Shown: positions 2,238-16,967 of the stretch, piece after piece
How positions within the stretch are numbered: the stretch's first letter is position 1
How the letters are laid out: the number at the start of each line of letters is the position of its first letter
Translations under genes and position numbers: made by a program
Virus record (IMG/VR): IMGVR_UViG_3300047290_000145
Location: 1 to 24,891 of that record
Length of the DNA stretch: 24,891 nucleotides
Source of the DNA: a virus
Lineage: Duplodnaviria > Caudoviricetes
Direction: 5' to 3' (one strand)
Notes under the pieces: generated by a model
What the model was told of the DNA's origin: nothing
What the model saw: only the letters and a program-made list of their open reading frames with translations
Database searches by the model: none

Positions 2238-2450
2238 TTATGCCTCTGTGATTGTCAAATCCGAATCAGGGCGTGCCGGGCTTAATGCCAGCAATTGTTT
2301 GTAGACATAAGCCGCCATAGTTTCGTCATACGCCTCGATCAAACGACGAGGAAGGCCTTTGTAAGAGACATAATACATCTTCGCCTCTTTATTGGCCAAA
2401 GGGGCTGATTCTTCAGCCCCTCGTACAACTTTAACTTTTGTCGAACTCAT
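2238..2450 (-). CDS. Hypothetical protein downstream of major capsid
   Basis: 70 aa ORF whose start overlaps the capsid gene stop (TAATG). Confidence 0.65.
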   Translation of the reverse strand: MSSTKVKVVRGAEESAPLANKEAKMYYVSYKGLPRRLIEAYDETMAAYVYKQLLALSPARPDSDLTITEA

Positions 2451-3790
2451 TAGTTCTTGCTCCGGACCACATAGTGCGGATCCCAGACCGAAGGGATACC
2501 CCGCTCGTTGGCAAAATATGTCGCAACGATGCCCTTGTCAAGCATTTCGTATTGGTTGGGGGCCGCTTGGGTAACGGTAAGCGGGTAAGCCTGCATATAG
2601 CGGAAGGGCTTCCCGGCTTCGAGCACCCAGAAATATTGATCGGCATTGGCTTGGGACAGGTTGAGGCCGTCCGCATCAGTACAACGCTGATCGAGCAGGG
2701 GGCTCGATGCAATCTCAAACTGCCCAGCGAACGGGTTAGACCCGCTCACAGAGATGTTTAGGCTGCTTCCGGTTGACATGGTAGCACCCGGAGTGGTTCT
2801 CCGTTCGGTGCTGGTTGCCCCAAGGATCAATTGCAAGGTGGCAAGAGCTGCCGGATTGCAAACAATCATGTTGGGTTGGGTCAACAAGCGTTTCCCGGTA
2901 TGGGGGTCCGCCATATCCTTGAACTTCATCATGACGGCGTTGATGGAGGTCCAGTCAAGCAGCGGGTTAGAGAAGTCGTTAAGGTAACCCAAGGTGCTAG
3001 TTGTCACATAGGTGTTATAAACGGTCCCGTTGTATTTGTAGGTGCTGTTGTTAACACCCGCAAACACATCGAGAACACGCAGTTCCTTGCGATAACCCAG
3101 TTCCTTGCCGATGTCTCCAGCTACTCGCAGGATTTCGCCCGTAAGGTCGCTAAACACGGTTTCCTTGTTAACATCAATCGCCAAGGCGTGTTCTTCGGTT
3201 TCGGGCGTTTCTACCCAACGCTCCGAAAAGCTTGCCCTTTCGGTAGCTTGACCCGGCAATCGCTTGCGGGCCCTGTCACCGATTTGGGTCACGCCGATGA
3301 TTTTCTGCCCACCCAACATTTTGGTAGGTTCGGCAGGAGCAATTTTATCGGCGATAAACGCCGGGTTGTTATAGGTCTCAAGGATTTTCACCTCCACGAG
3401 TCCGCCCACGATAGCGGTGAAAGTGTTGATGTTGAGGAACGAAGTTGGATCAACCCCAATTCCGTTGGCTTCCAAAAGGGAGCGTCCCGAATTCTCCATC
3501 AACGATTGATGGCGGTTGTATCGTGCAAGGGAGGAAAGCTGCGAAGGGTCCATCCAAGCGGACCAAGATGGTCCGATGATGGATTCTGCAAGGTCCCGAA
3601 TGCTGAACTGCTCCGGACGCAGCTTTCGTTCACCCAAGCGGATGTTTCCAGCATGGTCCCGAAGGGGCTGTCCATTTGCGCCGTTAAGGCCCATTTCCTT
3701 TCGGATTTCCTCAACAAATGCAACCCGGCCTGAAGGCCTTCTACAGGCACTTTGAAAAGCTTCAGACAAATTCATCTTGTTAACAATCAT
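2450..3790 (-). CDS. Major capsid protein (HK97 fold) with probable cleaved N-terminal region
   Basis: 446 aa; strong GGAGG RBS; follows the protease and decoration genes; C-terminal 'FANERGIPSVWDPHYVVRS' resembles the ends of HK97-fold capsid proteins. Confidence 0.85.
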   Translation of the reverse strand: MIVNKMNLSEAFQSACRRPSGRVAFVEEIRKEMGLNGANGQPLRDHAGNIRLGERKLRPEQFSIRDLAESIIGPSWSAWMDPSQLSSLARYNRHQSLMENSGRSLLEANGIGVDPTSFLNINTFTAIVGGLVEVKILETYNNPAFIADKIAPAEPTKMLGGQKIIGVTQIGDRARKRLPGQATERASFSERWVETPETEEHALAIDVNKETVFSDLTGEILRVAGDIGKELGYRKELRVLDVFAGVNNSTYKYNGTVYNTYVTTSTLGYLNDFSNPLLDWTSINAVMMKFKDMADPHTGKRLLTQPNMIVCNPAALATLQLILGATSTERRTTPGATMSTGSSLNISVSGSNPFAGQFEIASSPLLDQRCTDADGLNLSQANADQYFWVLEAGKPFRYMQAYPLTVTQAAPNQYEMLDKGIVATYFANERGIPSVWDPHYVVRSKN

Positions 3791-4353: not shown

Positions 4354-5451
4354 TTAGCTCAAAAGGTAAGAAGAAAGCGATTGGCCTTTGCGTGGCTCCG
4401 ATGATTCCATGAAAGGCATTCCGCTTTTGGGTTTGCTTGCTCGTTGAGCGTCAGCCAGTTTTTTGACATACCGCATTTGGGCATCTTCGGAAAGCTGCTT
4501 GAGGTCGCTCACAAGCTCCTTGGTTGGGCGGATTCCCTGACTTTCGCAAAGGGCCCGAACACGGAGAGTCTTTTTGCTTTCGGCAAGTTGGTGTTCTAAC
4601 TTGCCTAATCTGCGACGCAACACAAGAACATCCTTGGATTCCTTGGTGCTGCACATTTCTTCGGTATCTTTTTTCTTTTCGGGATCTTCGGAATCGCCTT
4701 CGGCTTCTTCCATATCCTTCTTTTCTTCATCGTCTTTCGACATTTCGCCATCAGCTTCCATGGCGTCCTTTTCGTCCTTGGACGATTCAGCGCCATCGGA
4801 TTCCATGCTGTTGTCTTCTTCCGAATCGCAGCTATCGCAAGCCATTTTGATAGCGTCCAATTTGGCCGCATCGTCCATGTCGCCATTCAGGATTTCGCTG
4901 ATCTTATCGCTTAACATTTTGGGTTCTCCTTTGATTGCCTCTGTAATAACAAAGTTCCTGATCTTGCTTTCGGCAAGGCTTCGTGTCGTTGCTGGATCCG
5001 CTACAAGGTCCACATGACGAACATCGGTGATTCTGCGGATGACAAGAACGCCGTCCTTGTCTTCTTCGCCTTCGCCTTGAGCATTGTGGGAAAGCCCGTA
5101 AGCATCTGGCATTCGTTCTGCCGCTTCGCAAATCGATTCAGCCATAGGCCTTGACATGAGTAGCTGAAGGTTTCCGTATAGTCCCTTGCCTTCAACATAA
5201 CGAATGTTGGTCAATTTTCCGATTCGATCTTCGGCCCGTCTTGATTGAGCCGGATCCCCTTCGGGATGATCCAAATTGACTTTAATTCCTTCGTACAAGG
5301 ATTTTGCAGCTTTTACCGCTTCTGGGAGATAGCGTCTGTTGTTTTCGCTATCGAATCCTAGGATTTTGACATTGTAAATCGTGCCCGTATTGCGATCAAC
5401 TCGCAATCCGCCTGTAAAAGGCTTGCCGATTTTTACATCTGTGCTTGGCAT
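4354..5451 (-). CDS. Prohead protease fused to an acidic scaffold region
   Basis: Start moved to ATG 5451 (MPSTDVK). Motifs S.NNRRY, 'NLDHP' (His), 'GLSHNA' (Ser) and 'VDLVADPAT' are typical of phage prohead serine proteases; the C-terminal half is D/E/K-rich and coiled-coil-like. Confidence 0.8.
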   Translation of the reverse strand: MPSTDVKIGKPFTGGLRVDRNTGTIYNVKILGFDSENNRRYLPEAVKAAKSLYEGIKVNLDHPEGDPAQSRRAEDRIGKLTNIRYVEGKGLYGNLQLLMSRPMAESICEAAERMPDAYGLSHNAQGEGEEDKDGVLVIRRITDVRHVDLVADPATTRSLAESKIRNFVITEAIKGEPKMLSDKISEILNGDMDDAAKLDAIKMACDSCDSEEDNSMESDGAESSKDEKDAMEADGEMSKDDEEKKDMEEAEGDSEDPEKKKDTEEMCSTKESKDVLVLRRRLGKLEHQLAESKKTLRVRALCESQGIRPTKELVSDLKQLSEDAQMRYVKKLADAQRASKPKSGMPFMESSEPRKGQSLSSYLLS

Positions 5452-5458
5452 AAGTTTA

Positions 5459-5734
5459 TTATCGCACGCTATTTGGCAGAATGTCAAGGGAGGCAGACCG
5501 GGGCAACCTGTTGGAGTCAACCCAATTTCGATAATTATTGAACGCAATCCTTACATTAGGATCTGAGATTTCCCCTGATCCTCCACGGAAATTCCCAAGA
5601 AAAATATTTCCTTTTGCATCTGGCGACCTTGTGTCGTCATGGAATGTTCCCAGCGTTCCATCGGAAAATATTAGTGCCGCAACGGGCCTGTTTCCTTGGT
5701 CCCGAAAAGCTCTTGCAAAAATCAGATTAGCCAT
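5459..5734 (-). CDS. Small hypothetical protein, candidate immunity/partner of the MuF effector
   Basis: Start moved to ATG 5734 (MANLIFARAFRDQ, 91 aa), overlapping the MuF stop; the immunity role is inferred from position only. Confidence 0.55.
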   Translation of the reverse strand: MANLIFARAFRDQGNRPVAALIFSDGTLGTFHDDTRSPDAKGNIFLGNFRGGSGEISDPNVRIAFNNYRNWVDSNRLPRSASLDILPNSVR

Positions 5735-8700
5735 GTGCGTTCTTCCAATTAAGAGAATGTGATGAAAATAACTTTTTTGCACTTCCCCAAGATTTTGCCC
5801 CATACCCATGAGCCATAACAATAAGCTCATTTTCTTCATTGTTCAAAAATGTTGGTTTACTAACATCTCCAATATTCCTTCCAAAAAGATAGGAAGAAAA
5901 CACCCTATGATGCGGGACTTCGATTTGAATAAGGTCTTCGTTGTGAACTTCAACCGTCCGAAATGATGCGTAAGATTCGGCAACTCCGGGATTAAATTCA
6001 TCAGCAGGAATGTTATTTGGGGAATCCCATCGCTCTGCTTGCAACTTGCTTTGATCCTTGAATGCTTGTTTTGTTTCTGTTCGATAAACAGACACAAACC
6101 CTTGCGCCCGATTATTCCCAAGCATATCAGTATTGCGAAGAAGTTCTGAGGTCAATGCGTGCATAGATGACATCGTTGTCCGATATTTTTGATAGCCTTG
6201 TTCGTCCAGTCCTGTTTCCAGCATAAATTTCTTTTTGTCTGCGGTTTTGTGCTTTGCGTAACTTTGTGAAAAATCAGCCCCCGGCTGAACGGATTGCATA
6301 AACAGTTTAAACTTGTTTGATGTTTTTGAGTTTGAACTAAGGCCTTGTCCTTGCCCATATTGTACGAATTCGTTCCAATCTCCGCCATTGGCTTCCATGT
6401 ATTTTCGCCATTGGTCTGTAATTCCTCCATAGTCACGCAGGTTGTCAAAAAGTTTTTTATTTTCATCTCTAACTTCAACATTTCCACTTCGCATTCCATC
6501 CAAACTAAAATCGCCCAGTCGCTTGGGTAAATTTCCGGTAATTTTCAGGCGTCTAAGATTTTGTTGATGCCGGGTGAAATCCTTGGCATATTCTGGATCG
6601 TATCCATCATTAACCAATGTTCTAGAAGTTGCGGCAATGTCCCGCATCTGCTCAATTCGTTTTTCCAGAATATCTTTGTGTTCGGCAGGAGTCGCCTTGA
6701 GAATTTCTTCTTTGGATTTGACGATTTTTTCCATTTGCTCCACGGTATCCATCCAAGGCATTTGTCCGTAAATCTGTGCCGCTTTCCCTTGTGCATCAGA
6801 TTTGGTAGCGTTTCTTGGATCGCTCATGGACCAAAGTTCCGTCGGGTGGGCGTCCCATTGGTCGGAAGTTTTCTTTTGCCCTTGGGCCCGGAAGGCCAAG
6901 GCTCCGCCATTGTCAATTCGATAAGGTGTTCCGTCTTTTCCGACAATAATATTGTCTGCGGACATTCCGATAACATCCCAATTCCCTAATAGAGCATCGG
7001 CTGCGAAATTGGCTTGGATCTTTTTCTGGACATCAGGATCGCTGAACTTTTTGTCTAAGGTTTCCCCGTCAATATGTTCTGCGATTTTAGTCAGCGCCCC
7101 GCCTGTGCTGTAAAGCTTTGACGCAGGAACCGGGACCCCAAGGGCTGCATAAAGTGCATCGGCATCGGCTTCGGATTGAATATGGTCCCGAGACGCCCCC
7201 AACTTTCGCACCCATTTTTTTCCAGTTTCATCCGTAACAAGATCCGCTCCCGTGCTTCCCCCAAGCCGTTTGCCTTGGGTAAGCTTTTCAAGGCTTGGAA
7301 AATCCTTGCGTGTTTCAAAGCGGGAAACAGGAACTACAAGGGAAAGGTCATTGTGCGGAACAAAGGCTTTGTGATTGCCGTTAGAATCCGTGAGGCCAAT
7401 TGCTGGCTTTGGAGCGCCCGGAATTGTGGGAACATTCCACATATTAGGATCGTGTTCGGCTTCGTCACTTTTGTTTTTCAATACAGCCAGCAAACGATCT
7501 TTCATTTCTTTTTTTGCGCTTATAAGGGTTTGTTGCCCGGCTGAAGCTGGCGGAGGAAGATTTTTTATCTTTATCTCTGGCAATGTCGCTGGAGGTTTGG
7601 CCGGGATAATGTTTTGCGGAACCATCGGAACAGTAGGAATAGGAGCAGAAGCAGCAGCAGCAGGAACCGAAGGCAAAGACGAAGCTACTGATGGATTGTA
7701 CTTATACAAAGCAATCATTGTTGCCGGATCATACGAACTGCTCGATGATACTTCTCCAGTTTTTTTGTCAATATATTTCCAAGGGAAAATTGCTCCTGTT
7801 GGCAAATCGTTAAAATGAACAAAATGAACTGTCCAATCGTTTGGGTTATAAATTGCCTCGTATCCAGACATATGGAATGGCGCTGATTTTTTTAAATCAT
7901 TTAGACTGTTGTTGTATTTATAAACCGGGTGTTTCCCACCTACTCCGGGTAAGCCAGAAGCCCCTGCTGACAATGTTCCAAATCCTTTAGGCAAAGAAAC
8001 AGGGGCAGAAGCCTGTGGAGCTGGAGTAGGAGCAGAAGGCGTTGTAATAGGCGGCTTTTTGTAGGTGTAAGCCATTCCATATTTTTTTGCCGAAATCGGA
8101 ACATCTGCGCTGCTTACGATAAAAAGGTCTCCGGTGTCGTCATCGGAAACAACAGAATATCCTGAAGGAATGACTTTCATGTCACCAATATTTTTCGAGG
8201 TCCAAGCATAAACGGGAGCTGTTGTTTTGAACCTTGGCTTTTTGGAATGAAGAACCAATCCGGGTGGAGGCCCCGAAGGTGGGGGTGGAGGCGAGGTTGG
8301 AGTCGGGCTTGGATTTTTAGGAATTATTGCTACTTTGCCACTATAGGTAGCGTACGAAGGCACATCGGTATAATTCACTACCAATGCTTCAAACGGGAAG
8401 GCTCCCGTGTAAAGGGCCAATGTATAGCCTGCGGGGACAAGGTCTGGCGGAATGGTTTGCTGCTTGCCTTGTTGGAGTCCGTTGTAAACCGGGTACATTG
8501 TATCGAAGTCTAATTTTCCGGTAAAAATAGGCAATGTGATTGGAGCAGGTGACGAGACGGGTATGTTGGTAGCTGGAGCAGGAATAGAAGCTATGTTGGG
8601 AGCTATGTTGGGAGCTATGTTGGGAGCAGGGGCGATGATTTGCTTTGCCGTGGAGACGATGCTTGGCGCTGTGATTGGTGCTGTCATTCCTGCCACATTG

Positions 8701-9950
8701 ATAATTGCCGCTTTGATTTTTGCGGCTTTGATGATTTCCGCCTTGGGAGGAACATAGCCAAATGTGGCAACAGCTTTGGCCAATCCTTTCCTTCGGGTAA
8801 GAAGCATCCTTACGGCTTGCAAGCGTTTGGCAAGTTCTTCGGGCGTTTCCGCTTGGAGCTGCGAAATGGAAAGCAATTGCCCCGTTTTGGGGTCAAGAAA
8901 ATGTTCCCACCCGGGGATTTCCCCTTTAGGCAGTTTGGCCAATACGGCTTGATACCGTCGCTTTCCTACGGCTGCGTGTTGTTCTTGAGGCGTTGCGCTT
9001 TTAAACCATTGCTGGTAAACAAGCGGATCCGGGACAAGCTCTTTTTCAGCATCAGCAAACACGGCTTTCGCTGCCGGGTCATTCTCGATGTGGACTTGGA
9101 TATCCATTACTGGAGTCAAATAACAGCGGCAATTATGGGCAACGGTCCCGTCTGGCTCATGTGGAGGATGCGGCATTGCCGTGATGGCTTTTTGCCCTTG
9201 CTTTGGGCTTTTGTAATAAATTTCTCCGGACCTTGCAGCATGATGCGGCCTTGTATGTGAATCCATTGTGGCATGGATTTGGTAGCCCACGACAAGGTCA
9301 CCTAGTTGTTCGTATTCCGCCATACGGGTCATTTGGGCAACCCTAGCCGCTTCGGTCCTTGCAACCCGCCTTGCGCTTGTCCTGACACCTTGCAGCATGG
9401 GCAGCAAGGTTTGTTCAAGGGCTTTGGGAGTTTGCCCGCTTGCCCTCCAATTGACAACAGCGTTGGCAATCTGTGCGGGATCGCCCAGTTTGGTTTGTTG
9501 AATGATCCGGGACCTCCAACCCAATCCGGCTGTTGGTGCTTCCACGATTTTTTTTGCGTCGTCTATTTTCATTGGATCAAAAAGCATCGACTTGATTTGC
9601 CGCTCCTGATCTGGAGTCGCTTTTTCTTCCGTGATCAACAAATTTTTGTAGCCATCGGGAAGCATTCCAAACACGGCATCTTGCGTTGCTTTTGATGTTT
9701 TGATGGCGATCTTTTCCAGACCGTCTTGCAGGGTGTCAATTCCTGCTAAAAGCATTTCGTCAATTAGCTTTTTGAGCTTTTCCCGAAACACCCAATAACC
9801 CGGCTTTTTGCTACGAATTAGCGCCTGAATTCGACGCCATTGTTTTTGAATAGCTGCATCAGCACGGGCCCCTAGTTTGTCTCCAGCGACAATAACAGGG
9901 GCCTGTGTCGTTCCGATTTTTGCAGCTAGAACTTGTGAATGGTAACCCAT
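5727..9950 (-). CDS. MuF/SPP1 gp7-family minor head protein with Pro-rich linker, kinase-like domain and probable ADP-ribosyltransferase domain
   Basis: N-terminal MuF motifs 'ARRVARTE', 'MDSHTRPHHAARSG', 'PPH......HNCRC'; directly after the portal gene. Kinase-like: GGSTGA...K...E...DALLGNWD...N...IDNG. ART-like: VYRTE...ESYAS...EENELIV. Confidence 0.85.
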   Translation of the reverse strand: MGYHSQVLAAKIGTTQAPVIVAGDKLGARADAAIQKQWRRIQALIRSKKPGYWVFREKLKKLIDEMLLAGIDTLQDGLEKIAIKTSKATQDAVFGMLPDGYKNLLITEEKATPDQERQIKSMLFDPMKIDDAKKIVEAPTAGLGWRSRIIQQTKLGDPAQIANAVVNWRASGQTPKALEQTLLPMLQGVRTSARRVARTEAARVAQMTRMAEYEQLGDLVVGYQIHATMDSHTRPHHAARSGEIYYKSPKQGQKAITAMPHPPHEPDGTVAHNCRCYLTPVMDIQVHIENDPAAKAVFADAEKELVPDPLVYQQWFKSATPQEQHAAVGKRRYQAVLAKLPKGEIPGWEHFLDPKTGQLLSISQLQAETPEELAKRLQAVRMLLTRRKGLAKAVATFGYVPPKAEIIKAAKIKAAIINVAGMTAPITAPSIVSTAKQIIAPAPNIAPNIAPNIASIPAPATNIPVSSPAPITLPIFTGKLDFDTMYPVYNGLQQGKQQTIPPDLVPAGYTLALYTGAFPFEALVVNYTDVPSYATYSGKVAIIPKNPSPTPTSPPPPPSGPPPGLVLHSKKPRFKTTAPVYAWTSKNIGDMKVIPSGYSVVSDDDTGDLFIVSSADVPISAKKYGMAYTYKKPPITTPSAPTPAPQASAPVSLPKGFGTLSAGASGLPGVGGKHPVYKYNNSLNDLKKSAPFHMSGYEAIYNPNDWTVHFVHFNDLPTGAIFPWKYIDKKTGEVSSSSSYDPATMIALYKYNPSVASSLPSVPAAAASAPIPTVPMVPQNIIPAKPPATLPEIKIKNLPPPASAGQQTLISAKKEMKDRLLAVLKNKSDEAEHDPNMWNVPTIPGAPKPAIGLTDSNGNHKAFVPHNDLSLVVPVSRFETRKDFPSLEKLTQGKRLGGSTGADLVTDETGKKWVRKLGASRDHIQSEADADALYAALGVPVPASKLYSTGGALTKIAEHIDGETLDKKFSDPDVQKKIQANFAADALLGNWDVIGMSADNIIVGKDGTPYRIDNGGALAFRAQGQKKTSDQWDAHPTELWSMSDPRNATKSDAQGKAAQIYGQMPWMDTVEQMEKIVKSKEEILKATPAEHKDILEKRIEQMRDIAATSRTLVNDGYDPEYAKDFTRHQQNLRRLKITGNLPKRLGDFSLDGMRSGNVEVRDENKKLFDNLRDYGGITDQWRKYMEANGGDWNEFVQYGQGQGLSSNSKTSNKFKLFMQSVQPGADFSQSYAKHKTADKKKFMLETGLDEQGYQKYRTTMSSMHALTSELLRNTDMLGNNRAQGFVSVYRTETKQAFKDQSKLQAERWDSPNNIPADEFNPGVAESYASFRTVEVHNEDLIQIEVPHHRVFSSYLFGRNIGDVSKPTFLNNEENELIVMAHGYGAKSWGSAKKLFSSHSLNWKNAHG
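8590..8627. repeat. 12-bp tandem repeat x3 (GCTATGTTGGGA) encoding (APNI)3 in the MuF linker
   Basis: Exact copies at 8590, 8602 and 8614. Confidence 0.9.
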
Positions 9951-11461
9951 TAGAGTGATGGAGTCCCTATTGGCATACCCGGCTGCGTAGCCATTTCCTC
10001 ATGATATTCTTGGATCTTTTGCTTTTCCTTCTCCCAATCAAGGCCCAATTCCTGAGCGACTGTTTGTGGAGATTTTACGCCGTTGGTAATGTAGGTTTGG
10101 TTTGCGACGGCTTCTTGGGTCTTGTCCCGTGTTTCAACCGATGGTGCTGTTGCTTCGATTTCGACCATATGCAAGATTCTTTCCGGAAGTTCTCCCACAT
10201 CGATTGCATTTTGAACGGCTGCGGTAATGACTCGTAGAAACGGACGCCGATAAAATTCCTGCAATCTGAGACAGTTCCTAAGGAATGGGCTTTCTGCTGT
10301 TAAGCTGCTTGCGTAGTTGTTGTTTGAAGCATCCCCAGAGCAAAGCCATTCAGGGGCGTTATGCCTTGCAGAAGCAGAACGAAGCAACATGGAGAAGATT
10401 TCAAGATGCCCTGCGGAGTTTGCGGAACCGGGAGGGGTTATGTAATTCATTCCCTTTGGAATATCTAGGAAGCTTCCGGCCTCAAGGCGTTGGAAGTCGG
10501 ATTGCCTTCCTGAATTTCCCATCGTGGAATAGTCGATAGCCTGTTGGATAAAAGTTTCGACCTGTCCTGCGGTGCTGGTATCGTGTTGCCGCACGGCTGC
10601 GATGGCCGCTTGAACCGCTCCACCTTCCGCAAGGTTTCGTCGAAGCTTCCCGGATTGACTAAAGATTTCGTGGGTTTCAAAGCTGAAGTCGGGAAGGCCT
10701 CTTTTGATGGACCGCCTGACATTGCACTTGATATGAACCATTTGTTCCGAAGGGACAATTTCGCCCAGTTCCGGATTTTTGGAATCTGCACCTAATGGCG
10801 CAAGATAGTGGACATGATACGCAATAATGTTGAATACATCGTCTGGATCAGTTTGGATTCCGTACGACCATTCTGCAAACTGTGAATTGGGAGGCTGTAT
10901 GATTTGCTCCGGTTCCACGGTTCTAATTTTCATGCGCCCGGAAGGTTGAGGAAACATCCGCAAGAACGCATCGCCATCTTCCCGACTCCGGGAAAATGCC
11001 TCTTGTTCCATTTCCTGCCACGAATTTTCCTCCATGAAACGGTCAATCACTTTTTGAACTTTACGAATCCATCCCGGATCGATTCCTGATTGATCTTTTT
11101 CTCTGACGGAATACGAAAAGCCTTTGCCGATGACATAGGATGTCAGGCCGTTAAGCAACCCAAAGGCGCTAGGATTCATGGCCACGATCATCCGGCTGCT
11201 TGCCCGGATCAAAGCAAGTTCTGATTCCGAAACCCAAAAAGGAAAATTGCTTCCGTATCGTCTGTCCGATGGTTGGGTAATCGGATAGACATTTCCTACG
11301 CCGTCCCGATACCGATCAAGCGTGTTGCTATAATTTGTAAGCCAAAAGTCTGTCCCCATTCCTTCCAGCATTCGTTCTGCCCGTTCGAGCATTTTTACTT
11401 TTAGTTTATCTTCCAGTTCCGCACGCTGTTTTGCGAAGTTTGGTTTGGATGTTCTGCTCAC
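9950..11461 (-). CDS. Portal protein
   Basis: 503 aa between TerL and MuF; 'YVIGKG', 'REDGDAFLR', 'RGLPD' and 'GDASNNNYASS' are portal-type motifs. Confidence 0.85.
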   Translation of the reverse strand: MSRTSKPNFAKQRAELEDKLKVKMLERAERMLEGMGTDFWLTNYSNTLDRYRDGVGNVYPITQPSDRRYGSNFPFWVSESELALIRASSRMIVAMNPSAFGLLNGLTSYVIGKGFSYSVREKDQSGIDPGWIRKVQKVIDRFMEENSWQEMEQEAFSRSREDGDAFLRMFPQPSGRMKIRTVEPEQIIQPPNSQFAEWSYGIQTDPDDVFNIIAYHVHYLAPLGADSKNPELGEIVPSEQMVHIKCNVRRSIKRGLPDFSFETHEIFSQSGKLRRNLAEGGAVQAAIAAVRQHDTSTAGQVETFIQQAIDYSTMGNSGRQSDFQRLEAGSFLDIPKGMNYITPPGSANSAGHLEIFSMLLRSASARHNAPEWLCSGDASNNNYASSLTAESPFLRNCLRLQEFYRRPFLRVITAAVQNAIDVGELPERILHMVEIEATAPSVETRDKTQEAVANQTYITNGVKSPQTVAQELGLDWEKEKQKIQEYHEEMATQPGMPIGTPSL

Positions 11462-12987
11462 GCTCGTAACCCTCGTGCTGTACTGTTTTTGCGTCCGTTG
11501 TACATTTCTATCATACTACGCAAGCCCATTTCCAAAGCGTCGGGCCCGTCATCGTGGGCATCGTTTGGAAATGATTGCATCTGTTTTATCATTATCGTCG
11601 TTCCTTTGGATTTTGCTTTGAAACGGAATTGTCCTTGGCGGAGATAAGGGCCCAATCTGCGAATGCGAACTGTTTTGGCAATGTTGTTGATGACTGAGAC
11701 AACAGGCACAGGAAATCCGGCCTGAAGGGCTTTTTGCCGAACGCCCACGGCAAGAAGTTCTTGGAATTGATTGGTCTCGAATGCGATGGCGTCTGCCCGA
11801 AATTGATCTTGAGTTTCGATAACTAGATCAATCAAGGATTCTGCCGGAAGGCGCTCCATAATCGCTTCGCACCAAATGTTCCCTTGTGCATCCATTCCCA
11901 TTTTGACAATAGCGGAATAATCCCCAGAGGAGGCGGAAGCACCTTTGGAAGGGTCAACCCCGATGACCTTGAGAACCATGGGGACATTCGGCCATTCGTC
12001 GAACCATATGGAATTGGGGAAATATTCTGGAGGCCATTCGACCCCGCCTGAGGATCTTGGGGATTGGTCGTAAAGTGCCGCCCATTCATAATCATCGATG
12101 GAGGCCTTCATCTGATTCAATTTTTCAATGGTATATTTTTCGGGCCAAAGTGCTTCACCCGGTGAACGATGATCGTATGGTTCCAAATCATGCCCAGCAA
12201 TTGCCGGAAGCCTAACCACTTCCCATTGATCTGCGGAAGGATCTTCAGCCGCTTTTTGAATGAGCATTCCGGCAAGATCATCCGTATGCCAGCGGGTCAT
12301 GATGATCAGAATCCGTGCGTCTTGTTCTTGCCGTGTGTAAAAAGTGGAGGTGTACCAGTCCCAAACTTTTTGGCGGAATACTGGAGAATCTGCTTCCGCC
12401 CGGGACTTGATTGGGTCATCGCAAATCAGGATGTTTCCACCAAGGCCTGTAATGCCTCCGCCAACTCCTGCGCTTCGGTACGCTCCGGAATGTCCCACGA
12501 TTTCAAAAATGGAGCTGTTGCGAAGTGGGATCCCGGATTCTGTTCTGACATTGGATTCATTAAGCCGGACTTTTGGAAAAATCTGCTGATAAGCCGGGGA
12601 ATCCATAATCCTTTGAACATCCCGGTTCATCGAGCTGGCAAGGTCTGCGCCGTAAGATGTTGCAATGATTTTGGTATTAGGATTTCTTCCAAGGGCCCAT
12701 GCAGGAAACCTTCTTGAAGCAAGTTCGCTTTTTCCGTGTCGTGGAGGAAGGGAAATGATCAGGCGTCGAAGGGTGCCTGTGGCCATTTGTTGCAGCTTTT
12801 CCGCCATTAACCTATGATGCCAGCCCGCTTGATAATCTGGCATGGTAGCTTGAACAAATGAAAGGAAATCGTTCCTTGCTGCGATTCGCTCCGCTAGAAC
12901 TTTTGTTGCTCGAATGGCCTGTTCTCGCAACTTAAGCCTTTTCAAGCCTTGCTGCTGCGTCTTTGATAATTTTTGCGAGTTCGACAT
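11458..12987 (-). CDS. terL: Terminase large subunit
   Basis: Walker A 'PPRHGKS', Walker B 'ILICDD', motif III 'MTRWH', nuclease 'GVDP..DYSA..HDDGPDA'. Start uncertain (12987 or 13002). Confidence 0.95.
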   Translation of the reverse strand: MSNSQKLSKTQQQGLKRLKLREQAIRATKVLAERIAARNDFLSFVQATMPDYQAGWHHRLMAEKLQQMATGTLRRLIISLPPRHGKSELASRRFPAWALGRNPNTKIIATSYGADLASSMNRDVQRIMDSPAYQQIFPKVRLNESNVRTESGIPLRNSSIFEIVGHSGAYRSAGVGGGITGLGGNILICDDPIKSRAEADSPVFRQKVWDWYTSTFYTRQEQDARILIIMTRWHTDDLAGMLIQKAAEDPSADQWEVVRLPAIAGHDLEPYDHRSPGEALWPEKYTIEKLNQMKASIDDYEWAALYDQSPRSSGGVEWPPEYFPNSIWFDEWPNVPMVLKVIGVDPSKGASASSGDYSAIVKMGMDAQGNIWCEAIMERLPAESLIDLVIETQDQFRADAIAFETNQFQELLAVGVRQKALQAGFPVPVVSVINNIAKTVRIRRLGPYLRQGQFRFKAKSKGTTIMIKQMQSFPNDAHDDGPDALEMGLRSMIEMYNGRKNSTARGLRA

Positions 12988-13321
12988 CCGACATTTCCTC
13001 AAGAGGCGTTTCTTCTGTTCGCTGAATCAATTCTGTTCTTTCAATATATCCCCTGCTTTTTCCAATAGTTTTTAGAGTAAAACAAACTGCCCAGCCTTCT
13101 TTTTTTGTTACGGCAGAATACAAAGCACTTTCGGCAACATCAACCAAGGACTCTCTTGCATCGTCAAGGATTGTTTTTAACTGTGGTGTCCTTTTGATCC
13201 GTTGATACAAAGCATTTCGGGTCATTCCAAGCGATCTGGCCGCTACAGAAATGTTACCCATTGATTTTTGCAAAGTATCTTCAATGACTGAAAGTTTTGT
13301 TCCGTAACGCCTAGTGCCCAT
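12932..13321 (-). CDS. terS: Terminase small subunit (HTH)
   Basis: 'GNISVAARSLGMTRNALYQRI' HTH followed by 'VDVAESAL...AVCFTLKTIGKSRGYIER'; immediately upstream of TerL. Confidence 0.8.
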   Translation of the reverse strand: MGTRRYGTKLSVIEDTLQKSMGNISVAARSLGMTRNALYQRIKRTPQLKTILDDARESLVDVAESALYSAVTKKEGWAVCFTLKTIGKSRGYIERTELIQRTEETPLEEMSDVELAKIIKDAAARLEKA

Positions 13322-13382
13322 TTCCCTTCCCCATTCTTTTTTACAGGTGTCAACTTTTGTTCATTTAGCCATTATTTTATCA

Positions 13383-14255
13383 TTACTTTCCGTTTTTTTT
13401 GCTTTGGTGCTTTTCGTTTAAAATCACGGGAGCTGCATTGGCCCAATTTATTTGATGATGTACCCTTTTGTTTTCCGTATGGAGCATAGAAATTTTGGTA
13501 CAGCTTGGAGCAATCATCACGGTATAAAATGATTTGACATAAGTTCCATATTCTTTATAGGCTTCTGTAATTCCCCCGGAGCTGCTTTGAGTTGGTTTTT
13601 GGTTCAATGAAATTAGTGGAAAAGTGAAAAACAATTCACCACGAATCGCCCCGCTTGTGTAAGTATTAACATCTTCATTTAGACGCCCCAAAAACTGAAT
13701 AGGGCGATCTGTTAAACAAAAAAATGAATTCATACATTTTCGTTTTAAAATTGGCTTTGTTGCTAATGAACCATTTTTCCCTCCAATAAAATCCCCACCT
13801 TGAGCAAAAGCAATTGACTTGATTGGAGTTGTTTTTAAAAATCGAACCATAGAGGCAAAAACATTGTTTAAGCTTTTTTTGATAATAGATGTTGCATATT
13901 GCCCTTGGCTATCAGTCCGAAATGAAAATTCTGTATAGTCGTCGTCGAGCTGAACAAAATATTTTAATTTTAATTTTTTAGCAGCTTCAAATGATGCATT
14001 TCTTGCATGAGTAATGGTCCTTCTGTCTTCAAAATTATCCATTTCATCTGTTTTATCTGACATCTGTTTTTTGTCAAATATAATGACATTTTCGCCATAA
14101 TTTTCAATATATTTTGATGCAGTAGAATCTTCGTTGTCAACCAAATAGTATATTGGGCCTGTATAGCCACATTTTTTAAGTGTAGCAATAGTGTAAATTT
14201 TATCTGGCCTTCCATGTGTAAGAATCAAAACGGCAAAATCATTCAGATCATTCAT
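13383..14255 (-). CDS. GT-A fold glycosyltransferase (GREB1/TET-associated-GT-like), putative DNA-modifying
   Basis: 'ILTHGRP', 'HARN', DxD-type 'QLDDDY', 'FLGRLNEDV' and 'GGIT' fit phage TAGT/GREB1-like glycosyltransferases; AT-rich; start moved to ATG 14255. Confidence 0.75.
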   Translation of the reverse strand: MNDLNDFAVLILTHGRPDKIYTIATLKKCGYTGPIYYLVDNEDSTASKYIENYGENVIIFDKKQMSDKTDEMDNFEDRRTITHARNASFEAAKKLKLKYFVQLDDDYTEFSFRTDSQGQYATSIIKKSLNNVFASMVRFLKTTPIKSIAFAQGGDFIGGKNGSLATKPILKRKCMNSFFCLTDRPIQFLGRLNEDVNTYTSGAIRGELFFTFPLISLNQKPTQSSSGGITEAYKEYGTYVKSFYTVMIAPSCTKISMLHTENKRVHHQINWANAAPVILNEKHQSKKNGK

Positions 14256-15012
14256 TAGTTTCTTCCCCACACATTTCCATGATTTCTTTAGTAATCTTTA
14301 CAAAGCCATTTTCGATAGCTTTTTTGACATCAATTATTACAAGTGCAGAGTTTTCAAAAAGCCGTTTTTCCTCATCGAAAGAATGTGCGTAAAAATCTGC
14401 AATGAGTTCATAATTGAAAACGATATGGCGGCTTGCCGCTTTTTTCAAAAATTCCTTTATTTCCGAGGAAATATTAGACGATTCAATTTCATTGACAAGT
14501 TTGTCATACTTTTCCGTATCAATGAGCTGATCAAGATTTGGCTTTTCATTTTTTGGTTCATAAATTGGAACTTCTGATTTTCTAGTGTATGTTTCCTCTT
14601 TTTCAATAATTCCAGCTTCTTCGGCCAAACTGGTAAGCATATCTGCAACTGCTTGATTATCAGTCTGAACATTTCTGAGTAAATTGTCAAGCATTTCAGA
14701 ATCGGTTTTTGCCATTGCGGATAGTGGATCGAATGTTGCAAGAATTTTGTTTCCTTCTTCTTCTGTCACATCCAAAATCAAACAAGGAATTTCTGAATCA
14801 GGACAAGTTTCAGTCCTTAAGTGTCCATCAATCAGCATTAAACCTTCTGGGGTTTCTCTGGCTAGTACTGCGCCTGCAAATCCAATATCCGCAAGAATAC
14901 CACGCAAAGCTTCTTTTTGTGCTTTAGGATGAACTCTCCAATTTTTTGGATTTGGTGCAAGTTCAGATGCTTTCACCCTACGAAATTCTTTGATGCGATC
15001 TTTAATTTTCAT
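14248..15012 (-). CDS. ParB-like N-terminal domain fused to a helical domain of unknown function
   Basis: 'LAPNPKNWRVHP..Q...L......GF' and 'LIDGHLR' are ParB/Srx-like motifs; distinct C-terminal region 'YTRK..PIYEP...FLKKAASRHIVFNYELIADFYAH...SALVIID'. Start moved to ATG 15012. Confidence 0.8.
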   Translation of the reverse strand: MKIKDRIKEFRRVKASELAPNPKNWRVHPKAQKEALRGILADIGFAGAVLARETPEGLMLIDGHLRTETCPDSEIPCLILDVTEEEGNKILATFDPLSAMAKTDSEMLDNLLRNVQTDNQAVADMLTSLAEEAGIIEKEETYTRKSEVPIYEPKNEKPNLDQLIDTEKYDKLVNEIESSNISSEIKEFLKKAASRHIVFNYELIADFYAHSFDEEKRLFENSALVIIDVKKAIENGFVKITKEIMEMCGEETNE

Positions 15013-15325
15013 CAAACAGCTCCTCAATCAAAAAGTAGGTCGTCTTTCCTGTTGCGTTCTTAAATTCATTTTTTGCTGGCTCTCGTGGTGCTGGAACCGA
15101 ATCGTCAGGATGAAATAGTTCTTCCCCTGCTTTTGCCCGTTCAGCCAATGATCTCATGTGGTTCCTTGATTGTATTGGTTCCTGTGCTTTTTTTGCACGG
15201 TACAGTTCCGGGCATATGATTTCGCAAATTTTGGCCCATACTCCAGCGGGAATTTCTTTGCCGACAACTATGTAGGCATTTTCAATTCGTCGCTCAAGAG
15301 TTTTTACCAAAACGGCTTGTTTCAT
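15002..15325 (-). CDS. Hypothetical protein
   Basis: 107 aa, ATGA-coupled to the upstream gene and overlapping the downstream start. Confidence 0.65.
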   Translation of the reverse strand: MKQAVLVKTLERRIENAYIVVGKEIPAGVWAKICEIICPELYRAKKAQEPIQSRNHMRSLAERAKAGEELFHPDDSVPAPREPAKNEFKNATGKTTYFLIEELFDEN

Positions 15326-15762
15326 CCAACATATCCAAGCGTTTCATTTAGCGCTTCATCATCTAGAATTTCTGTCATTGCATCTTTGGGCCAAACAATT
15401 TCCGGATGCGCTGGAGAACCTAGCAGGATATTATTTCCTGCGCTTAATGGAGGCTTTTCCATTTTGATCGTTTTGAGTTTGGGGCAACAGGCAAACGCAA
15501 ACGACCCGATTGTTATGACGGAATCCGGGATAATGATTTCTTCAAGATCAGGGCAACCCATAAAAGCCATCGCACCGATGCTGATATAGGAAGAAGCGAT
15601 AGAAATCTTCTTGATTCCTTTCTTTCTGGCAAAAGCTTCTTTGCCGATATAAAGCATAAAATGCCCATCGATCAATGGAGGAATCATTATTGATTGCTCA
15701 TTGCCTTTATACCGAAACAGAATGTTTCCATTGATGTCGTATAGTTCGCTGTAGTAGCTCAT
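15322..15762 (-). CDS. BspA/TpLRR-type leucine-rich repeat protein
   Basis: About three repeats: 'IGKEAF', 'SIGAMAFMGCPDLEEIIIPDSVITIGSFAFACCPKLKTI'. Start moved to ATG 15762 (MSYYSEL); no signal peptide. Confidence 0.85.
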   Translation of the reverse strand: MSYYSELYDINGNILFRYKGNEQSIMIPPLIDGHFMLYIGKEAFARKKGIKKISIASSYISIGAMAFMGCPDLEEIIIPDSVITIGSFAFACCPKLKTIKMEKPPLSAGNNILLGSPAHPEIVWPKDAMTEILDDEALNETLGYVG

Positions 15763-16235
15763 TGTTCTGTCCCGTCTGTTGGAAAAGCTTTTTTGCCTAA
15801 CCAGTCCTGTAGTAGAGCAAGTGCTTTTCCGTTGTCGATCCATTCCGGGAGGATCCGAAAAATTGTGTAACCTTGCAGCGTGATGGCGTTGTATTTTTCA
15901 ATGTCCGCACGAAACCCTGCTGGGCGCACATGGCGTCCACCTGTCCAGATTCCTCCCTCGATTTCGATGACAAGCCCCCATTGTGGCCAAAAAAGATCTA
16001 CCCGCCATTTCCTTCCGGGAACAAGCATCTGTTCGTGTTTTGGAATAGGGAGTCCAGCGATTTGACAAACCATTGTCATAGCGGCATTGTTTTGGGCCCC
16101 TGATCGTGGGACTTTCTTTTTTTTCTTGGGAATCAAAATTGGGCCCCCCCCCAGACACAGGTTGGCTCCCCGAAAACAAGTAGACGCAAGGGGGGACCCG
16201 ATTAGATTCTTACCGTGATTTGGAAAATAAATCAA
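15759..16235 (-). CDS. PD-(D/E)xK endonuclease (Vsr/DUF559-like)
   Basis: 'RKWRVDLFWP...VIEIEGGIWTGGRH......DIEKYN.....GY.IFR' is a common phage nuclease signature. Confidence 0.8.
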   Translation of the reverse strand: MIYFPNHGKNLIGSPLASTCFRGANLCLGGGPILIPKKKKKVPRSGAQNNAAMTMVCQIAGLPIPKHEQMLVPGRKWRVDLFWPQWGLVIEIEGGIWTGGRHVRPAGFRADIEKYNAITLQGYTIFRILPEWIDNGKALALLQDWLGKKAFPTDGTEQ

Positions 16236-16423
16236 GGAAATATTTTCCTGAGGTCTTCCAGATGCTCAATCAATTTGCCCATTTGCACCTTACGCAACCG
16301 TGGCGGAAGGGTTGCATCTTCCATGGTGTCGAATAGTGCGACAGCGCAAGCAAACGCTGTCCCTAGGATCGCTTGGACATTTGTGATATTGGGCCCAAGG
16401 TCGATATCATTCGCATCCTGCAT
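16232..16423 (-). CDS. Hypothetical protein
   Basis: 63 aa helical ORF filling the gap, with overlaps on both sides. Confidence 0.55.
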   Translation of the reverse strand: MQDANDIDLGPNITNVQAILGTAFACAVALFDTMEDATLPPRLRKVQMGKLIEHLEDLRKIFP

Positions 16424-16967
16424 CTTTGATCCTCATTTGTTTTTTCAAGTTTTCTTTTGCCCGATTTGCCAATTGCCGCACCCGCTCCTTGGTAATCCCC
16501 ATTTCTGCTCCGACTTCGGACAGGGTTCGGCTTTCCCAAAACATCCGTTGTAGAACATCTTGATCCCGTTGATTTAGCTTTTTCAGGCAAGCCCGCAATA
16601 GTTCCAGTTCCAAAAAATCAACATTCAAATCATAGGTTGTTGGGATAGTCGTTTCGTAATCTTCGTCCATCGATGAATCAAACCTATGGTTGCGAATACG
16701 CTTGCGCTCCCAGCTACCCTTTCTTCTTCTCCAATCTCCCATCGCCCAATATGTTGCCCATGTTATGTATGTTCCGATGTTCGCCCGTGCAGGGTCCCAT
16801 TCTGGTATCATTCGGCAGACTGCAAGCTTTACGGACTGTAGGCAATCTGGGTCACGGAACTCCCGCCAATTCGCCATTTTGTTAAATTGCCTGTAAATGA
16901 GCCCGGTATTCGCACAGTACAAATCCCGCTGCTCCTGCGTCATTGGAACCATTTTTTTACCCTTCAT
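16407..16967 (-). CDS. Sigma-70-family RNA polymerase sigma factor-like protein
   Basis: Region 2-like 'WDPARANIGTYITW' and region 4 'LNQRDQDVL......RTLSEVGAEMGITKERVRQL'; GGAG RBS. Confidence 0.85.
   Translation of the reverse strand: MKGKKMVPMTQEQRDLYCANTGLIYRQFNKMANWREFRDPDCLQSVKLAVCRMIPEWDPARANIGTYITWATYWAMGDWRRRKGSWERKRIRNHRFDSSMDEDYETTIPTTYDLNVDFLELELLRACLKKLNQRDQDVLQRMFWESRTLSEVGAEMGITKERVRQLANRAKENLKKQMRIKDAGCE

Follow-up and report, generated by a model that had tools for sequence, protein, structure and literature searches.

The window analysed here is a 24,891-nucleotide (nt) stretch (IMG/VR record IMGVR_UViG_3300047290_000145, positions 1 to 24,891) and represents a fragment of a tailed-phage genome (24.9 kb). 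Its minus strand carries replication genes, a sigma factor gene and the genes for terminase and portal, followed by an open reading frame (ORF) of 1407 amino acids (aa), an ORF of 91 aa, a scaffold-like gene and a capsid gene (Table 1). The 1407-aa ORF is a MuF polymorphic head-protein gene with a conserved tail that pairs a predicted kinase with a predicted ADP-ribosyltransferase (ART). It is located in the head and packaging module, with terminase and portal upstream and capsid downstream, and overlaps the 91-aa ORF by 8 nt.

Table 1. Features of the window, numbered from its first nucleotide
Feature	Positions	Strand	Residues, basis or remarks
MuF-kinase-ART protein, 1407 aa (P0001)	5727-9950	-	
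N-terminal head-morphogenesis region	8751-9950	-	aa 1-400; Pfam and phrog_595, 241, 115
Pfam Phage_Mu_F core	9117-9473	-	aa 160-278; E 3.5e-10
Pro-rich spacer	7311-8750	-	aa 401-880; three degenerate modules of 70-88 aa
Predicted atypical kinase domain	6609-7304	-	aa 883-1114; G-loop 897-902, K916, E927, D992, N1000, D1013
Conserved linker	6423-6608	-	aa 1115-1176; occurs with this ART family
Divergent R-S-ExE ART-like domain	5751-6422	-	aa 1177-1400; Q1202, S1206, R1290, S1326, E1373, E1375
Coupled 91-aa ORF, candidate immunity protein for the ART	5459-5734	-	Slot as in the partner family; weak similarity
Sigma-70-type promoter match, 11/12 near-consensus, at end of small ORF	5458-5487	-	Consensus match only
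Acidic scaffold/protease-like gene, directly downstream	4354-5451	-	Identity from position and synteny; no family match
Capsid gene	2450-3790	-	
Portal gene, directly upstream of large ORF	9950-11461	-	Context
Terminase gene	11458-13002	-	Pfam/PHROG context
Sigma-70-like factor gene	16407-16967		

The N-terminal region of the protein matches PF04233 above the curated cutoff, and the similarity of its relatives reaches beyond the Pfam core across the first 400 residues. Phage_Mu_F was the only Pfam family found in the large ORF, and nothing matched outside the N-terminal region. The spacer contains three modules (aa 471-548, 565-634 and 665-752; window 7695-8540, minus strand) that share the pattern PVY...GY...D-x-P, with hhalign probabilities of 78% between modules 1 and 2 and 52% between modules 2 and 3. 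These modules are gained or lost as units among close relatives, the window protein having all three, P0002 the first two, and P0003 and P0004 the second and third. A first-pass annotation of this DNA had described a MuF region of about 400 aa extended by about 1000 aa; the MuF region stands, but the enzyme domains account for only about 520 of the 1000 additional residues.

The first enzyme domain contains the elements expected of a kinase fold: a glycine-rich loop (G-loop; LGGSTGA, aa 896-902), a Lys (K916), a Glu (E927), the catalytic Asp within DALLGNWD (D992), an Asn (N1000) and the Mg-binding Asp within RIDNG (D1013). In a wide structural search with a model of aa 880-1407 (predicted local distance difference test, pLDDT, 93; predicted template modelling score, pTM, 0.93), CtkA ranked first (Z 13.1, root-mean-square deviation (rmsd) 3.6, 203 residues aligned), followed by PI4KII (Z 12.0), CotH (Z 11.8) and then actin-fragmin kinase and HipA (Z 11.6), and all of these alignments fell on the first 235 residues of the model. 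Foldseek also found the kinase at E<=0.001. These results support the assignment of aa 883-1114 to an atypical HipA/CtkA/PI4K-like kinase, the class (HipA/PI3-4K-like) that had been proposed from the motifs alone. Fold and catalytic layout are shared with all five enzymes (Z 11.6-13.1), whereas sequence identity is 11-18% and the substrate class (protein, lipid or small molecule) is not readable from the fold.

Several known kinase groups were considered and rejected. The HipA toxin family proper is excluded by the lack of a Pfam HipA match in the kinase region at E<=10, and the T7K group by the lack of a T7K PHROG match; NCBIfam gave 0 matches across 66 cassettes. A different, truncated polyvalent-protein kinase is described in PMC5512222, and such kinases, which lack the entire C-terminal subdomain, are excluded because a helical C-lobe is present in the model, whose alignment to CtkA spans residues 4-235. 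Related kinases are also located inside large bacterial proteins with Nudix, HEAT or ankyrin repeats (L212, L215, L216, L221, L224, L232 and L234). They form a clade of their own (support 0.97), which suggests exchange with host-directed effectors.

The second enzyme domain displays VYRTE (R1290), ESYAS (S1326) and E1373-N-E1375, that is, the R, S-x-S and E-x-E layout of the R-S-E clade of ARTs, except that the second Ser is Ala in the window. R1290, S1326 and E1373/E1375 lie on or beside modelled strands. With an ART-only model (pLDDT 90), the best structural match was a Listeria ART toxin (Z 5.8, rmsd 4.7, 154 residues aligned), followed by C3stau2, Certhrax, VIP2 and Vis, and the top 25 rows were all occupied by ART-fold proteins, as judged by title. 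The ART call derives from this fold ranking together with the invariant R-S-ExE residues rather than from a strong single match. It is weakened by a best Z below 8, by the lack of a Foldseek match for the ART model at E<=0.001, by ART Pfam matches in 0 of 71 ART sequences, and by Ala1328 at a position where 97% of the family has Ser. On balance, the evidence supports aa 1177-1400 as a divergent R-S-ExE ART. The two folds that the first-pass annotation had expected in a predicted structure were both recovered, the ART by fold ranking and not by Foldseek.

The Alt/VIP2 family (PF03496) is excluded for this domain by its 0 of 71 profile matches, and Atlas look-alikes with PF03496 scored 0.85-0.86, which is lead level only. 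Searches of PDB sequences with the cassette, the cassette alignment, the ART alignment and the alignment of the partner family described below gave nothing significant, neither Pfam nor NCBIfam has a name for the kinase, ART or partner family, and the ART was not found in plasmids. The domain might use NAD+ but act elsewhere than on protein arginines, for instance on nucleic acid, in attaching NAD-capped RNA or in NAD+ hydrolysis. Its strong divergence (rmsd 4.7-5 A to all solved ARTs), its own invariant residues (Q1202 and S1206) and the presence of DNA-targeting and NADase members lower in the list (Scabin, Z 3.7; Pierisin, 3.6; Tne2, 2.7) are compatible with such an activity. The ExE loop, which is a pointer to arginine acceptors in ARTs, is nevertheless invariant, and the best-ranked rows are protein-modifying R-S-E enzymes; we regard such an activity elsewhere as unlikely.

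A search with aa 880-1407 gave 244 proteins at E<=0.001 among 7997 candidates. Most of the 120 matches listed cover either 92-100% or about 55% of the query; when these were cut by domain, both the kinase and the ART-like part were present in most, in some cases separated by an inserted stretch of ~100 aa. All the motifs quoted by the first-pass annotation were located in the large ORF where it had placed them, and the invariance of their residues in an alignment of 108 sequences (G-loop, K916, E927, D992, N1000, D1013, Q1202, R1290, S1326, E1373 and E1375) excludes a chance occurrence. Four scans, covering contigs from viruses, metagenomes and genomes and with three of them contributing their best 80 each, yielded 241 loci; among the labels of contigs carrying these families are Cyanobacteria, Chloroflexota, Verrucomicrobiota and Planctomycetes. 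The ART is present in 123 of these loci, grouped into 90 clusters at 80% identity. Its R and S are kept in 90/90 clusters and ExE in 89/90, while the K/E/D/N/D set of the kinase is kept in all 84 of the 90 clusters that cover it. The scan patterns were kinase motifs, so the conservation of the kinase is partly selected and counts for less; the ART figures were not selected in this way. Decayed or pseudo-enzyme domains are ruled out by the catalytic residues kept across the 90 clusters.

The two domains have travelled together. Of the 90 ART-linked kinases, 89 fell into one clade (support 0.93) together with 8 others in a tree built from 181 kinase domains, and the tree required 28 label changes against a shuffled mean of 81; since kin share labels, this indicates long co-inheritance only. 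Scans with ART motifs gave 31 matches (3 unrelated and 1 ended by a contig edge), and a kinase was found in 27/27 ART-positive loci, although 24 of the 27 contigs were already in the set. In ART-profile searches of 802 genomes, a kinase accompanied 8 of 9 matches. One match, L333, lies where its contig ends and has the linker and part of the ART in a frame that contains no kinase. Among the kinases that lack this ART, 18 of 73 tails match PF03496 or PF01129 and 6 of 73 match Nudix (73 of 81 tails scanned). In cultured phages the kinase was found in 20 records, none covering this ART, and the two that were inspected end in PF03496.

Two cultured phages, Pseudomonas phage Dolphis (gp117-119; L293:7081-12093) and Escherichia phage ECML-606-1 (L294:2955-11064), encode a large protein with kinase and VIP2-like ART and without a MuF match, followed by a gene of ~165 aa; in Dolphis, Nudix is the next gene. 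Another 29 clusters (L045:7486-8265 and 28 like it) have the same kinase in front of a C-terminal domain of ~250 aa that has no name (H..L..GG, YxFTRI, NETxFKxG), and this type of tail has its own downstream gene of 115-145 aa. The L045-type domain resembles ARTs in the order of its motifs and is possibly another ART-fold family, but it matched nothing in Pfam or PDB, its sole lead being OspC in the Atlas (0.88), and it was not counted as an ART.

The association between kinase and ART could mean that they form one coupled machine, in which the kinase activates the ART, whether by phosphorylating itself or by releasing the inhibitor, or primes the same target. The near absence of the ART without the kinase, the single clade of ART-linked kinases and the pTM of the two-domain model are all in line with this, as are the frequent placement of kinases lacking this ART before another NAD-related domain and the fact that no immunity gene tracking the kinase was found. 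Co-inheritance and a confident model nevertheless fall short of functional coupling, other MuF-ART fusions function with no kinase (L251 and Bxa), and L333 provides a further ART without an in-frame kinase. We consider such coupling possible, while leaning against it. The extended version of this idea is that phages of several bacterial phyla carry a head-borne two-enzyme machine whose HipA-like kinase arms the ART after injection, or whose domains write a paired phosphate and ADP-ribose mark on a single host target, with the kinase placed before at least two, and possibly three, unrelated ART families that each have their own inhibitor gene; this we regard as doubtful.

The MuF part of the protein belongs to a polymorphic slot. 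For the same MuF clade, 50 of 51 loci yield a MuF ORF, in 19 clusters that share the MuF N-terminus and vary in their C-terminus. In 8 short-tailed clusters a scaffold-like gene follows within 111 nt. Behind tails with a PF03496 ART, HExxH, DUF3626 or Nudix+kinase+ART comes an ORF of 84-191 aa that differs from one tail type to the next. One cluster has its MuF fused to the scaffold, and in the other five the gap is larger or no scaffold gene is visible. The presence of the same MuF with other tails or none identifies a MuF polymorphic-toxin slot, as the first-pass annotation had recognized. In L242-L250, L260, L266 and L281, MuF, about 1000 aa of unassigned sequence and a scaffold-like protein form a single ORF of 1600-1900 aa.

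The gene that follows this ART also behaves as a family. An unnamed gene of about 90-140 aa lies directly after the ART, on the same strand, in 57 of the 90 clusters, and in 12 more clusters (14 loci, including cyanobacterial genome contigs) it is inverted stop-to-stop, mostly within 20 nt, so that the partner is present in 69 of 90 ART clusters. In the inverted clusters (L003, L006, L010, L012, L015, L046, L052, L082, L083, L087, L161 and L164) the partner adjoins the stop codon of the toxin, and a gene in this orientation would need its own promoter and be expressed independently of the late operon. Several of the remaining ART clusters have divergent look-alikes of the partner, and L004, L008 and L323 contain a second, unrelated convergent family, present once per cassette copy in L323. 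Both L323 (909-7042) and L008 (4499-7530) contain arrays in which a complete cassette, a remnant left by deletion and an orphan kinase-ART copy have convergent small genes of the second family between them, as in polymorphic-toxin cassette arrays. Kinases without this ART are linked to other tails and other downstream families, and the partner was found in 0 of their 99 clusters (13 of which have no downstream room and 5 of which are truncated cassettes). It is thus the ART, rather than the kinase, that the partner follows, as would be expected of an immunity gene for the C-terminal enzyme.

The 91-aa ORF of the window fits the small ORF (<150 aa) found directly downstream of MuF toxins, and its database relatives are limited to sequences of 92-98% identity. 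Across four public contigs, 16 of its 22 variable sites are at third codon positions (p about 2e-4), no stop codon or indel was detected, and there are 15 synonymous changes against 8 non-synonymous ones, where 25% synonymous would be expected; on this codon pattern, the ORF is a genuine gene. In two public contigs the small ORF is preserved while the sequence just before its start differs (window 5735-5760), so that the last residues of the toxin vary.

The relation of the 91-aa ORF to the partner family is less clear. Its alignment places the D-G, G-x-x-F-L-G and D-P motifs of the family in order. On the other side of the balance, the ORF scored E 0.62 against the partner hidden Markov model in a set of 104 sequences, its hhalign probability with the family was 0.9%, and its gapped profile score was equalled by 3 of 300 shuffles and 13 of 400 natural ORFs in a test chosen after the alignment had been seen. 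A profile search for intermediates gave 7 proteins, none alignable to the 91-aa ORF, and no similarity to the second partner family was seen. Its tie to the main partner family consists of position and weak similarity. Although a genuine gene, it may encode something other than an inhibitor, for example a minor head accessory, as its weak similarity to one family, its lack of similarity to the other and its narrow set of relatives would allow. Against this, it sits in exactly the slot that is vacant in the 8 clusters with a short MuF and is taken by a tail-specific gene in relatives with enzyme tails, the family motifs align in order, and two unrelated partner families already serve this ART; a role other than inhibition is, in our view, unlikely. 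The first-pass annotation had read the ORF as the inhibitor of a two-enzyme effector; its status as a candidate immunity gene is retained on account of its slot, but, given that the partner tracks the ART, it is better read as a putative partner of the ART than as an inhibitor of both enzymes.

The carriers of the cassette bear on where the protein acts. Among 72 N-terminal parts scanned, 38 contain MuF, 4 Phage_min_cap2, 2 portal, 11 Nudix and 1 GNAT, and 25 match no family, in categories that overlap. A protein that acts in the producing or lysogenic cell, through superinfection exclusion, abortive infection or a toxin-antitoxin-like mechanism, and is not delivered by the virion, would agree with the role proposed for a HipA-like kinase located between portal and capsid genes in gut phages (PMC8008677), with the expression of inverted partners independently of the late operon and with the finding of some cassette copies on host contigs of 120-530 kb. 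That the cassette is fused to head proteins of three types (MuF, minor capsid 2 and portal) is nevertheless difficult to account for without packaging, and independent expression of the partner equally fits the protection of a lysogen against incoming toxin. We regard an action confined to the producing cell as unlikely. A search for the MuF region in 301 genomes, taken from the phylum to which an Isosphaeraceae genome belongs, gave no match and had no positive control.

We consider it probable that the 1407-aa protein is a packaged and injected effector whose ART modifies arginines of host proteins, with the small protein blocking the ART in the producer and the kinase acting as a coupled helper. 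The large ORF is encoded among head genes and is translationally coupled to the 91-aa ORF, whose product, judging from co-occurrence, may bind the ART in the producing or lysogenic cell. By analogy with SPP1 gp7 (PMC5576092) and T4 Alt, the MuF part would hold the protein at the portal in one or two copies, and the enzymes, trailing on the long Pro-rich spacer, could be ejected without the inhibitor. Early takeover of the host or the disarming of its defences is the likely purpose. In the new host the ART would use NAD+ and, by the ExE rule, arginine acceptors, and the kinase would use ATP, with Ser/Thr residues of proteins as its most likely acceptors. Because a different partner gene comes with a different C-terminal enzyme, and not with the kinase, we take the ART to be the part that inhibits growth and the kinase to be a coupled helper, either tolerated or kept silent inside the folded unit that the two share. 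No integrase was found among the 24 window proteins scanned, which come from a genome fragment, and relatives lie on large host contigs; a temperate lifestyle is conceivable for this phage. The alternatives overlap with this favoured reading and were scored separately from it.

Window 5300-10100 was found without differences in one public contig, possibly the source of the window, and a second contig from another study, 91% identical, covers 5303-7484; an assembly artefact is ruled out by the related proteins and by these contigs. The only overlap with RNA contigs was 33 low-complexity bases, which is uninformative. At the end of the small ORF, the -10 box of the promoter match overlaps the stop codon and points toward the scaffold gene, and the phage also encodes its own sigma-70-like factor. 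Beside the terminase gene, 13383-15843 (minus strand) encodes a TAGT-family glycosyltransferase, a ParB-like gene and a BspA leucine-rich-repeat gene. The GC content is about 0.36 over 13001-15000, and this low-GC block with the glycosyltransferase is possibly a DNA-modification module.

Several elements of this system have precedents. MuF polymorphic toxins of temperate phages (PMC5576092; PMC3482391) share the N-terminal MuF in the packaging module, the variable C-terminal enzyme and the small downstream ORF. As defined in PMC5576092, 89.4% have such an ORF and 14% of the 191 listed are ARTs. In the window, by contrast, the tail consists of two catalytic domains inherited as one unit, and the ART has no Pfam. 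The word 'kinase' is absent from the main text of PMC5576092, while its Table S5 labels four deltaproteobacterial MuF proteins of ~1525 aa as 'Kinase', non-toxin, and these may or may not contain the kinase described here. In the text available of PMC3482391, a lantibiotic-type toxin kinase is the only kinase listed. ART-MuF and Nudix-MuF fusions have been reported (PMC9503650, PMC7302621), and Bxa, a MuF-ART of a Bacteroides prophage, is antibacterial and blocked by two adjacent immunity proteins, Bsi/BAH (PMC11699363). The fusion and the adjacent immunity genes are common to Bxa and the window, whereas the account of Bxa, as far as it was available, describes no kinase, and no ADP-ribosyl hydrolase gene lies beside the window gene.

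T4 Alt and the Alt/VIP2-MuF fusions (PMC5512222; PMC9503650; PMC7302621) are head-packaged R-S-E ARTs for which modification of host proteins at entry has been proposed or shown; the window ART differs in lying outside PF03496 and in having a kinase in front and a dedicated partner gene. In the 'Gratiaviridae' (PMC8008677), a HipA-class kinase is also placed between portal and major capsid genes, but with an AAA ATPase and a glycosyltransferase and, in that description, without MuF or ART. The T7 kinase gp0.7 disarms defences (PMC13645617) and is a functional precedent only, being an early gene product with a DPV motif and a shut-off domain and not a head protein. No description of a MuF-kinase-ART tandem was found in the literature, mostly open access, and supplements may list one; the atypical kinase family, the divergent ART family and the two candidate immunity families appear to be unnamed. 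Virion-delivered ARTs such as T4 Alt and phage kinases such as T7 gp0.7 are each known to rewire the host, and their fixed fusion on a head protein is undescribed in the literature found. The finding makes it testable how a packaged toxin stays off in the producer and turns on at entry, and the Pseudomonas putida phage Dolphis, with its related kinase before a VIP2-like ART, offers a laboratory route. Compared with these systems, the delivery scheme and MuF-ART toxins are already known, and the fixed pairing with an atypical kinase is the new part.

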